From the UHGV virus genome UHGV-0215688: 19,127 nucleotides of DNA. One strand, given 5' to 3'. Shown here in pieces: positions 1-7,307 of the stretch; position 1 is the stretch's first letter, and each line of letters opens with the position of its first letter. A program made the translations under genes and the position numbers. The notes under the pieces are model-generated. The model was not told where the DNA came from and searched no databases. It was given only the letters and a program-made list of their open reading frames with translations. This DNA is from a virus.

Positions 1-116
1 CATAACCTGAATCTGAGGCAGCACCTGGCACGGCTGGGACGGAAGTCGCTGTCGTTCTCAAAATCGGTGGAGCTGCATGACAAAGTCATCGGGCATTATC
101 TGAACATAAAACACTA

Positions 117-566
117 TCAATAAGTTGGAGTCATTACCCAGAATTCTATGCTAACGCTCCATGAAGGATCATTTATCAAATGGAATGATAGAGGTGTCGA
201 GCCATGTATAAATGCCAAATTCGCAATCCAAGTCCTTATGCTAAAAACATAATCACCTGGCACATACCCCCCATTATGGCTATTTACACAGTAAATTATT
301 ACCATTATCGCTGATGATATGAAGGTAAGAGGCCACAGCCTCGCCAGTCTATTCAAGAAATATGACGGGATAGACGCCCCATTTCTTACAGAATGGGTAA
401 GCACAAATCCCGAAATGATGAAAAAATATGCAACAGCCAAGTGAGGGCCACTAAATGGCCCGTCATTTTTCCAACCAGTAACAGCATTGATGGCGTGATT
501 TAAAAGCACTACGCAAGCAAAAAGGCCGCGCAAACCATCAACAGCATAGAAGCGTTTAATTTCCAT
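117..566 (-). pseudogene. Acyltransferase family 3 (O-antigen/LPS acyltransferase-like), N-terminal fragment, truncated at 149 aa
   Basis: Translation carries the N-terminal hallmarks of acyltransferase-3 membrane enzymes: RFYAVDGLRGLFACVVLLNH, FFIISGFVL, NRLARLWPL, WSVSIEF. Full-length members are about 330+ aa; here the frame stops at 117 and all three minus frames hit stops shortly after. ATG at 564-566 has no Shine-Dalgarno. Gene is visibly AT-rich against the GC-rich phage backbone. Confidence 0.5.
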
Positions 567-590
567 AACAATTTATTTAAAAAAAGAAAA

Positions 591-596
591 ATTATA
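591..596 (-). promoter_or_regulatory. Candidate -10 hexamer (TATAAT on minus strand) upstream of the acyltransferase fragment
   Basis: Plus-strand attata at 591-596 is a perfect TATAAT on the minus strand, 24 nt upstream of the ATG at 566. No convincing -35 was found. Confidence 0.25.
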
Positions 597-685
597 CTAG
601 AAATATATCATCAACATCTATGCCATTGATGATTAAGTGATGATTGTCACATTTTTATGTTTCTGGCTAGATTGCTGTCAGCGCT

Positions 686-853
686 TTACGCGTTTGACTC
701 AGGTTCGGTGAACGCTCCCTCTTCATAAATCCATCCGATTCCACATGGAATTCCGTCTATTTTAACAACCTTAAAATCATCAAAAATATGACCTTCACCA
801 TCCCATATAACAACATTAACAACTATTCCATCTGTAATTAATGCATATCTCAT
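686..853 (-). CDS. Small hypothetical protein (55 aa) translationally coupled to the tail fibre gene
   Basis: ORF track gives 686..874. The ATG at 851-853 overlaps the fibre TGA stop (ATGA) and has GGAGG 7 nt upstream, so the likely product starts [22 protein letters not shown]. Visibly AT-rich compared with the fibre gene. Confidence 0.5.
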
Positions 854-1776
854 GCAAATTCCTCCACAAGACAAATACCATCAGCACCTTCACCACCATA
901 AAAACGCGTGGAGAAGACCTGCGTGTCATATGCGCCAGCGCCGCCGCCGCCAGGGACTAATGCTTTCGCAATTATCGGTGAAGATACAGTACACTGCCCC
1001 GCTCTTCGGCTGCCACCCCAAAAGCTTGAACCGCCGTACCCATTAAGGAATCTGGTATTACTTTGGCCATCTCCGCCATCTCCGCCGGCTAGATTTACAT
1101 CACCACCAGACCCGGCAACTCCAACGCCGCCTGATGCATATACAGTGGAAGCAGTGGACGGGTTTCCGCCTGTGGCAACCATCCCGCTAAATGTTGAGTT
1201 ACCGCCTTTTGTTGCCTCAGTGCCGCCGGCACCGATAACCACGGCAAAGTTTGTGATATCAGCCACGTTGAACCATTTGATACCTGTAGCGCCTGCAGCC
1301 CCCCCCGCACCGGAAAAGTTATCGGTTGGGGCACCACTATTAAAAGCGCCACCTCCGCCACCACCTCCTCCCGTTAGAGTTACTTTGATGCGCTTCGTCA
1401 GCGGGTTTAGCGTTACTGTTTTTGATGAGGTGATCCACTGCTCGGCAATCTTCCTACCTACGTATCCGTTGGTATCTCCCAAATCAAGGTTTGCGAGAGC
1501 CGTTTTCACCGTGCCATCCGATTTGATATCGCCAAACGGATTCTTGCGGCTTAACAGCAGAGCACGAAGCGCGGTAAGCAACTGGTCGTGCCGCGCCTTC
1601 TCCAGACTGGCACCAGATGCCTCAACAACGCTACAAAGTTCTTCCTGCAACATGTCAAAGTAGTCATCATCCAGATCGGTGGCAGGCGTGCCAGTCTGGG
1701 GGTTACCACGGGTAAAACCGTTCTTACCCGCGCCGAACTTATCCTTCTGCGCGGTTTTCGTGTCTATACGATGCAT
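850..1776 (-). CDS. Tail fibre protein with conserved N-terminal domain and glycine-rich C-terminal region
   Basis: 308 aa, last gene of the tail operon directly after the gp48-like gene. N-terminus [58 protein letters not shown] resembles side-tail-fibre N-termini of Mu/e14-type prophages, as recalled. C-terminal half is Gly-rich with an octa-glycine run. GGAG RBS 6 nt upstream of the ATG. Confidence 0.75.
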
Positions 1777-6869: not shown

Positions 6870-7307
6870 ATGGAAATGTTTTTGCCGTTAATACTGGGTT
6901 TGTTGCTAGCCGTTTTCATAGGACGGTGGGCTTATAAAAAAGAAAAGACCAAGCCCAGAAAAATAATGGCTGCTCTTCTCGGTGCTGTTTTTGGATTCTT
7001 CGCACCACTGATAATCGCAGCGTTTGTTATGACTCCCCCAGAAAAAGAAAAAACTAAAGAGGAGCTTGTTATGGCAAAGCTCACACGCTCTTTGGATGGT
7101 TGTCCACTTGATATGAAAGATCGCGTGAAAGAATCAATGAATGATCCCGATAGTTTTGAATGTATCGAAACTAACGTTATACGTCGTAAAGATGATTACG
7201 TCATGATCATGCAGTTCCGTGGCAAAAACCAATTAGGGGGAATGGTTAAAAATGTCGCCAAGGCGGAATATGACTCAGAGGGAAATTTCGCAAGGTTCAT
7301 CAATTAA
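6870..7307 (+). CDS. Moron: 145-aa two-helix membrane protein with a roughly 90-aa C-terminal soluble domain (candidate superinfection exclusion protein)
   Basis: Only convincing plus-strand gene in the window. Strong RBS AAGGAGAGG 5 nt before the ATG. Two hydrophobic helices (about residues 3-19 and 33-54) separated by a Lys-rich loop YKKEKTKPRK, followed by a domain with two Cys. Strongly AT-rich against neighbours; hairpin immediately after the stop. Confidence 0.75.
   Translation: MEMFLPLILGLLLAVFIGRWAYKKEKTKPRKIMAALLGAVFGFFAPLIIAAFVMTPPEKEKTKEELVMAKLTRSLDGCPLDMKDRVKESMNDPDSFECIETNVIRRKDDYVMIMQFRGKNQLGGMVKNVAKAEYDSEGNFARFIN

Follow-up and report, generated by a model that had tools for sequence, protein, structure and literature searches.

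The DNA analysed here, a stretch of 19,127 nt from the virus genome UHGV-0215688 that we call the window throughout, begins with a broken gene. Positions 1..138 are the right end of the insertion sequence IS1 (the 3' end of insB and the terminal inverted repeat, which ends in AAGTTGGAGTCATTACC), and they match IS1 records from phages and E. coli at 100%. The adjoining 138..566, on the minus strand, encode the 5' fragment, of about 143 codons, of an AT3 membrane acyltransferase (Acyl_transf_3, PF01757, E = 2e-22, from the translation), the ATG of which lies at 566-564. From window position 137 onwards, the sequence is homologous to the acyltransferase gene that is intact in E. coli CUWW06, and the 149-aa open reading frame (ORF) listed for the minus strand at 117..566 is a fusion that runs from the acyltransferase into IS1. 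The intact protein has 356 aa and is present in E. coli CUWW06, 14EC033, and 100416; among 5,426 complete E. coli genomes, the intact gene occurs in three. At the DNA level, no match was found in the phage collection, and the best protein match among deposited phages has an identity of only 26%. In UHGV-0215688, this conversion gene is dead, having been cut by IS1 after about codon 143.

Upstream of the acyltransferase, with respect to the minus strand, lies an AT-rich intergenic spacer of 119 bp (567..685), with a GC content of about 0.34-0.37 as against 0.52-0.57 in the tail genes. It is followed by a 55-aa ORF (686..853, minus strand) without a Pfam family, and then by the gene for a glycine-rich tail fibre of 308 aa (850..1776, minus strand; Gly_rich_2, PF21722), the last structural gene of the late operon. 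In E. coli, Kluyvera, and Cedecea, the 55-aa ORF accompanies the acyltransferase, and longer counterparts, of 60 aa, are found at the same position in Izhakiella and in the contig L012. It should be mentioned that RefSeq treats part of the tail fibre gene in the 45-kb CUWW06 locus (L026, 3105-3407) as a 303-nt “incomplete” pseudogene, whereas the ORF in the window is uninterrupted; the unusual glycine-rich sequence has probably misled the annotation. Elsewhere in the window, between the DNA circularization and tape measure genes, a 145-aa ORF (6870-7307, plus strand; RefSeq hypothetical protein WP_061350224.1) runs opposite to the minus-strand tail operon and resembles a second moron.

The complete element can be seen in CUWW06, where it is a lambdoid prophage of 38 kb inserted between dacD and sbcB, with its integrase beside sbcB. 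Its genes include cI, cro, O, P, and Q, an HK97-type head, and a Mu-type contractile tail, and the acyltransferase is the last gene before the att end on the dacD side. GC content over the acyltransferase and the spacer is 0.34-0.45, against 0.52-0.57 in the tail genes, and the acyltransferase is thus what is usually called a moron, a non-structural gene at a module boundary with a deviating base composition. The order of tail fibre, small ORF, acyltransferase, and integrase recurs in a relative with a protein identity of 56%, and the sequences of the adjoining tail fibre and small ORF share the rarity of the acyltransferase itself (3 of 5,426 E. coli genomes). Both the place and the composition of the acyltransferase gene are classic for lysogenic conversion.

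The spacer contains several short repeated words, and a sequence-only reading had described them as three copies of an 8-mer, spaced at a helical turn around a candidate promoter, that formed an operator or an iteron-like binding site. On re-reading the sequence, the coordinates given for the direct repeat, the inverted repeat, and the TATAAT all proved correct: TGATGATT stands at 627-634 and again at 638-645, with a start-to-start distance of 11 bp, and a repeat search of the window shows that ATCATCAA (607-614) is the exact complement of TTGATGAT (626-633). Three related words do therefore exist, but the longest word common to all three is the 7-mer TGATGAT, and no 8-mer is present three times; the middle copy and the third, inverted copy have the offset 8-mer TTGATGAT in common, not TGATGATT. 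The helical-turn spacing likewise applies to the two direct copies alone, as 20 bp separate the start of the inverted copy from the middle one.

How far chance can account for these words was assessed in several ways. In the window, TGATGATT occurs four times against 0.74 expected, and a comparable 7-mer triple arose in 48 of 20,000 dinucleotide shuffles of 567-685. A cluster test that asked for three non-overlapping copies of one 7-mer, with at least three different letters, inside 40 bp (a test devised after the pattern had been seen) was run on the window and about 167 kb of fetched, partly redundant loci, and it was positive only at the 567-685 locus and at the lambdoid ori iterons, which lie within the prophage replication gene. 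The latter, a TACCTGA/CAGGTAA cluster in the O-type replication gene of CUWW06 (L026, 29156-29215), are the iterons expected of a lambdoid origin and serve as a positive control. The TGATGAT cluster at the spacer is unusual because it is rare in shuffles and almost absent from the other real DNA tested. The earlier statement that it does not look like chance holds to this extent, but the word itself is common in the prophage and the test is a post hoc one: TGATGAT has 21 copies in the CUWW06 locus, 19 of them inside the prophage, where base composition predicts about 4.6, an approximately fourfold excess that resides mostly in coding DNA.

The comparison with relatives is more informative. From contigs of protein homologues, we obtained five distinct alignable alleles of the upstream region, namely the window type, 14EC033, Kluyvera, the metagenome contig L014 (protein identity 86%), and Cedecea (73%). 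The window-type allele is also found in CUWW06, in strain 100416, and in one gut metagenome contig, and the 14EC033 type is also found in three Enterobacter-type contigs. The Kluyvera allele looks like a recombinant of the window and 14EC033 types with a crossover near -66 to -80. For the more distant homologues of Yersinia, L012, and Izhakiella (65-55% identity), the upstream DNA is unalignable and holds no comparable site. By collection, the relatives among GTDB genomes are Kluyvera and Izhakiella only, IMG/VR has only the Yersinia type, and the JGI metagenomes have one identical copy; when IMG/VR was scanned for the motif pattern, the single match was unrelated and due to chance.

Across the five alleles, the three words have had very different fates. 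The proximal copy (607..614, minus strand), which reads TTGATGAT on the gene strand, is the only one that is invariant in all five, and it sits in the spacer/-35 zone of the TATAAT promoter. The middle copy (626..634, minus strand), which forms an 8-bp inverted repeat with the proximal one, reads AATCATCAA on the gene strand in the window, 14EC033, and Kluyvera alleles, has one change in L014 (AATCATTAA), and is lost in Cedecea (ATCTATGTA). The distal copy reads AATCATCA in the window, AACCATCA in 14EC033, AACCGTCA in Kluyvera, TAGATCA in L014, and AGAATCA in Cedecea, and its invariant bases are exactly the TCAC half of a palindrome of the CRP type. In other words, the perfect triple is present in the window-type allele only. 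Conservation had been set beforehand as the check on an operator or iteron-like triple, and in the syntenic relatives the triple is not kept. Because the set of three belongs to one allele only, the alignment does not support the view that the three TGATGAT words make up one functional array.

What is conserved is the cassette around these words. On the gene strand, the blocks that are invariant in the five alleles are G.GAC, TCACT, GCATA, TTGATGAT, ATTT, GTATA.TTT, and the stretch directly before the ATG. With the third codon positions of the acyltransferase gene as a yardstick for constraint (45% identity in Cedecea and 69% in L014), the region from -66 to -1 is 70% identical in Cedecea and 79% in L014, and the 22-mer at -88..-67 is 68% and 77% identical, while -119..-89 drops to 23% and 29% and is effectively unrelated. 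To judge from these alignments, the region -88..-1 is under constraint because it is 68-79% identical, against 45-69% at third codon positions, and the sequence just upstream is unrelated. The homology ends exactly at -88, the 5' edge of the CRP-like site described below.

In the relatives, IS elements have inserted three times independently, in every case farther upstream than about -110. In Enterobacter, an IS256-like element flanked by the target duplication GCGAGTAA sits where the small ORF has its stop codon; in L014, the end of an IS3-family element is found about 113 nt before the ATG; and in strain 100416, an IS1 has removed the rest of the prophage, the gene and 262 nt upstream being kept. 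After such IS-mediated rearrangements, the acyltransferase cassette is thus kept with only 113-262 nt of upstream DNA. In 100416 (L003, 4430-5464), the IS1 stands at the equivalent of window position ~828, the whole prophage is missing, from the small ORF through to an integrase that is truncated, and the intact acyltransferase adjoins dacD. Either the cassette has been retained alone under selection or an IS1-mediated deletion has been caught in passing. A second observation can also be read in two ways. The window-type and 14EC033 alleles differ at 13% of positions elsewhere in the gene and at about 19% just right of 642, but they share a mismatch-free block of 126 nt (517..642; 4381-4506 in L001/L002), which may have arisen through selection or through recombination over a short tract.

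A perfect -10 hexamer, TATAAT on the minus strand (ATTATA on the plus strand, 591..596), precedes the acyltransferase fragment 24 nt upstream of its ATG and is the top candidate in a promoter scan, which bears out the earlier description. It is kept in four of the five alleles and replaced by TATATT in L014, with GTATA.T invariant in all five. The best -35 candidates are poor (TAGATG at a distance of 18 nt and AGATGT at 17 nt), and a stricter consensus promoter scan does not report the TATAAT promoter, the -35 being too weak. A weak -35 is typical of activator-dependent promoters. Two further promoter candidates were set aside: a second promoter on the minus strand with an extended -10, TGaTATATT (610..602), is present in the window type and Cedecea and destroyed in L014 (TGCAAT), and a plus-strand promoter, TTGTCA-18-TAGATT, has a -10 that is not kept in 14EC033. 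The spacer is thus probably the promoter region of the acyltransferase gene, and in UHGV-0215688 it is a functionless promoter relic, inactive because IS1 broke the gene.

Between the -10 and the ATG, a 12-base tract of pyrimidines only, TTTTTCTTTTTTT (579-590, minus strand), is found without a Shine-Dalgarno sequence, and on the gene strand this tract (590..579) makes the position of the start site awkward. The Yersinia homologue has a run of seven G at the equivalent place (L011, 2975-2986). Such homopolymer leader tracts could affect the choice of start site or could slip, and no length variation was seen among the alleles compared.

The most upstream part of the conserved cassette resembles a binding site for CRP, the cAMP receptor protein, the consensus of which is the two-fold symmetric, 22-bp TGTGA-N6-TCACA, acting from class I or class II positions, with class I near -61.5 (PMC10199772) or farther upstream on the same face of the helix. 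The candidate 22-mer, AAATGTGACAATCATCACTTAA (633..654, minus strand), contains the distal TGATGATT copy (638-645), and its core on the gene strand, TGTGA-CAATCA-TCACT (651..636, centre 643.5), matches the consensus at 9 of 10 positions. TGTGA and TCACT are both half-sites of the lac CRP site. In the window, GTGA-N6-TCAC occurs twice against 0.25 expected. Across the five alleles, two of the 10 half-site columns vary, as against nine of the 12 other columns of the 22-mer (hypergeometric, one-sided, p ~0.015, for alleles that are few and related). In Cedecea, the stop codon of the small ORF falls within this site.

The candidate was also scored with a rough symmetric position weight matrix (PWM), which is approximate and was made from 23 classical CRP sites. 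The site scores 9.7 bits in the window, 7.5 in 14EC033, 7.4 in Kluyvera, 13.3 in L014, and 5.4 in Cedecea, where one half-site reads TGGGA. It is by far the best match in each of the five upstream regions (5.4-13.3 bits, the next best being at most 5.4), and the window score is about the leave-one-out median of the known sites (9.5 bits). Counted to the first base of the -10 hexamer, the centre of the site lies 47.5 nt upstream in the window type and 48.5 nt in L014 and Cedecea; in lac, the corresponding distance is 49.5, and a lac-like start would put the centre at -59.5 or -60.5, 1-2 bp off the canonical -61.5. By chance, 9 of 10 matches to the consensus are expected 0.61 times per 19 kb, and five positions in the window reach the PWM score of the candidate, which amounts to about 0.02 per 119 nt before any correction for the dozen or so transcription-factor consensuses tried by eye. 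Taken alone, the CRP-like site is statistically not compelling. Moreover, the upstream regions of the more distant homologues in L012 and Izhakiella have unrelated promoters without a CRP-like site, part of the conservation (the 126-nt block) could be due to a recombination tract and not to selection, given that the alleles are few and related, and the CRP model leaves the invariant TTGATGAT (about -30 to -23) unexplained. On sequence evidence, the action of CRP at the acyltransferase promoter is possible, with a chance that we put clearly below even.

Several other identities for the repeated words were rejected. The words are not the operator of the prophage repressor: the intergenic cI/cro operators of the CUWW06 prophage differ from them, and TGATGAT is unclustered there. 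Lambdoid iterons and operators are similar to the spacer in that a short word recurs several times within 40 bp; they differ in that the spacer copies are not kept as a set, are unrelated to the cI/cro operators, and lie at the late/att end and not at the ori or in the immunity region. Arm sites of the integrase are rejected as well, since the entire acyltransferase gene separates the repeats from the att end, a distance of over 1.1 kb. Among consensuses compared by eye, those of Fur, IHF, PhoP, PmrA, OmpR, the marbox, the DnaA box, and the LysR-type ATC-N9-GAT are poorly matched or unconserved in L014/Cedecea, and for FNR (TTGAT-N4-ATCAA) the words are in the wrong relative orientation. The gtr promoters of Salmonella prophages, which are switched by Dam/OxyR phase variation through four GATC sites inside OxyR half-sites (PMC3688519), resemble the spacer in that a region of repeated sequence, with repeats overlapping the -35, lies upstream of a prophage gene for O-antigen modification. 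Unlike the gtr promoters, the spacer has no GATC anywhere in 567-685, which excludes this mechanism.

Putting these observations together, we propose that the spacer is the sigma-70 promoter and regulatory region of a mobile AT3 acyltransferase moron with putative activation by cAMP-CRP, a reading to which we give nearly an even chance. The acyltransferase would be a horizontally mobile lysogenic-conversion moron of the oac/oacC kind, its place being att-proximal, beyond the tail fibre genes. Sigma-70 RNA polymerase would use the TATAAT at 596..591 in spite of its poor -35, and cAMP-CRP on TGTGACAATCATCACT (centre 643.5, which corresponds to about -59.5 to -61.5 according to where the start site is) would recruit the polymerase through the C-terminal domain of its alpha subunit, an arrangement like that of lac and other class I promoters. 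The three words would then be of different kinds: the distal copy would amount to the N6 of the CRP-type site together with its TCAC half, while the proximal copy would be an invariant 8-mer in the promoter spacer and the middle copy an only loosely conserved element. Of the earlier proposal of a protein-binding promoter, a promoter with probable protein-binding sites would thus stand, but not three words that form one array.

The likeness to the class I promoter lac P1 lies in the TGTGA-N6-TCACT with the half-sites of lac, in the single site upstream of a good -10 and a poor -35, in the place of the candidate site as the most upstream conserved element of its cassette, and in a distance from the centre to the -10 of 47.5-48.5 nt, against 49.5 in lac. 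The spacer differs from lac P1 in that the candidate site would be 1-2 bp short of -61.5 if the start is lac-like, the target is a surface-modification gene of a prophage and not a catabolic one, and an additional invariant TTGATGAT lies in the promoter spacer. With the Sf6 oac, oacB, and oacC genes, the acyltransferase has in common that it is a lone membrane acyltransferase consisting of AT3 only, low in GC, by the tail fibre end near the att site of a temperate phage. Conversion genes of this type are often flanked or struck by IS elements and survive as remnants on prophage decay, as in strain 100416. The insertion at the dacD/sbcB site is a difference, and the likeness rests on gene type and position; SfII and SfV have thrW as their attachment site. 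In S. flexneri 6, the O-acetylase gene oacC adjoins SfII-like tail genes (PMC4206707).

The most serious alternative to CRP activation is that no specific regulator is involved. The repeats would then be a by-product of AT-rich DNA that is rich in GAT and ATC, or of an old 11-bp microduplication (TGATGATTAAG / TGATGATTGTC), the CRP-like match would be a coincidence, and the gene would be expressed constitutively from the TATAAT or by Q-antiterminated read-through from the late operon, or would be silenced by H-NS as is other foreign DNA rich in AT. We regard this as rather unlikely but as a serious alternative, and several of the facts given above speak for it: the fourfold excess of TGATGAT in the prophage, the five other positions in 19 kb that equal the CRP-like score, and the relatives with unrelated promoters, which manage without such sites. 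A scan found no terminator between the late operon and the acyltransferase, and the phage carries the antiterminator Q. Against it, conservation over -88..-1 clearly exceeds that at synonymous sites, the boundary of homology coincides with the edge of the palindrome, and the half-sites are kept while the N6 varies; the rarity of so tight a cluster in shuffles also tells against it. A much smaller possibility is a role of the inverted repeat at the RNA level, where it would serve as a leader structure or, at the end of the late transcript, as a processing hairpin or a weak terminator. ATCATCAA and TTGATGAT could pair as an 8-bp stem followed by AUAUUU, and a 141-nt RNA folds somewhat better than its shuffles (z = -2.2). 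However, the minimum-energy fold is without that stem, which has two G-C pairs only and no proper U-tract, a scan of 567-700 found no terminator, no Rfam family matches, and the stem lies upstream of the predicted -10 and hence outside the acyltransferase mRNA. We consider this extremely improbable.

It may also be supposed that a dedicated regulator uses the TGATGAT copies as its operator and switches the acyltransferase promoter on or off, either as a dimer on ATCATCAA-N11-TTGATGAT, centred at 620 over the -35 zone, or as a winged-helix protein on the two direct copies 11 bp apart. The rarity of the cluster (48 of 20,000 shuffles, and a test on real DNA that picks only the spacer locus and true iterons) suits this view, as do the invariance of the proximal copy in the five alleles and the overlap with the core promoter, the usual place of operators. 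In L014, the inverted repeat is kept at 7 of 8 positions with the same spacing, but this is what the background identity of 79% leads one to expect. Outside the window-type allele, the distal copy always differs at one to three positions, Cedecea has lost the middle copy, and the distal bases that are conserved are those of a CRP half-site. Furthermore, no candidate regulator gene adjoins the cassette in any context examined, the cI/cro operators and ori iterons of the prophage differ in sequence, and the word is unclustered elsewhere in the prophage. A dedicated operator of this sort is quite unlikely, if still conceivable for the closely related alleles, and the preferred reading is still that of a sigma-70 promoter with putative CRP activation. 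An extension of that reading, which we rate as unlikely though less so than the operator, is that the 88-bp cassette ties the surface acyltransferase to the carbon status of the host, through the CRP site and a second factor on TTGATGAT and its inverted partner.

For annotation, these considerations mean that the spacer is to be described as a promoter relic and not as an operator array or an origin-like element. Nothing in UHGV-0215688 depends on it, the acyltransferase being destroyed. The interest of the cassette lies in its intact relatives. Prophage acyltransferases change the O-antigen or other surface sugars and thereby serotype, phage sensitivity, and immune recognition, and to our knowledge the regulation of conversion genes is known in detail only for the phase-variable gtr operons controlled by Dam and OxyR. 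If the carbon-status reading is true, the modification of the surface, and with it the masking of phage receptors and antigens, would be switched by nutrient state, in contrast to the known oac and gtr systems, which are constitutive or phase-variable. If the small family found in E. coli, Kluyvera, Enterobacter, and Cedecea is indeed controlled by CRP, it would represent a different way of regulating lysogenic conversion.
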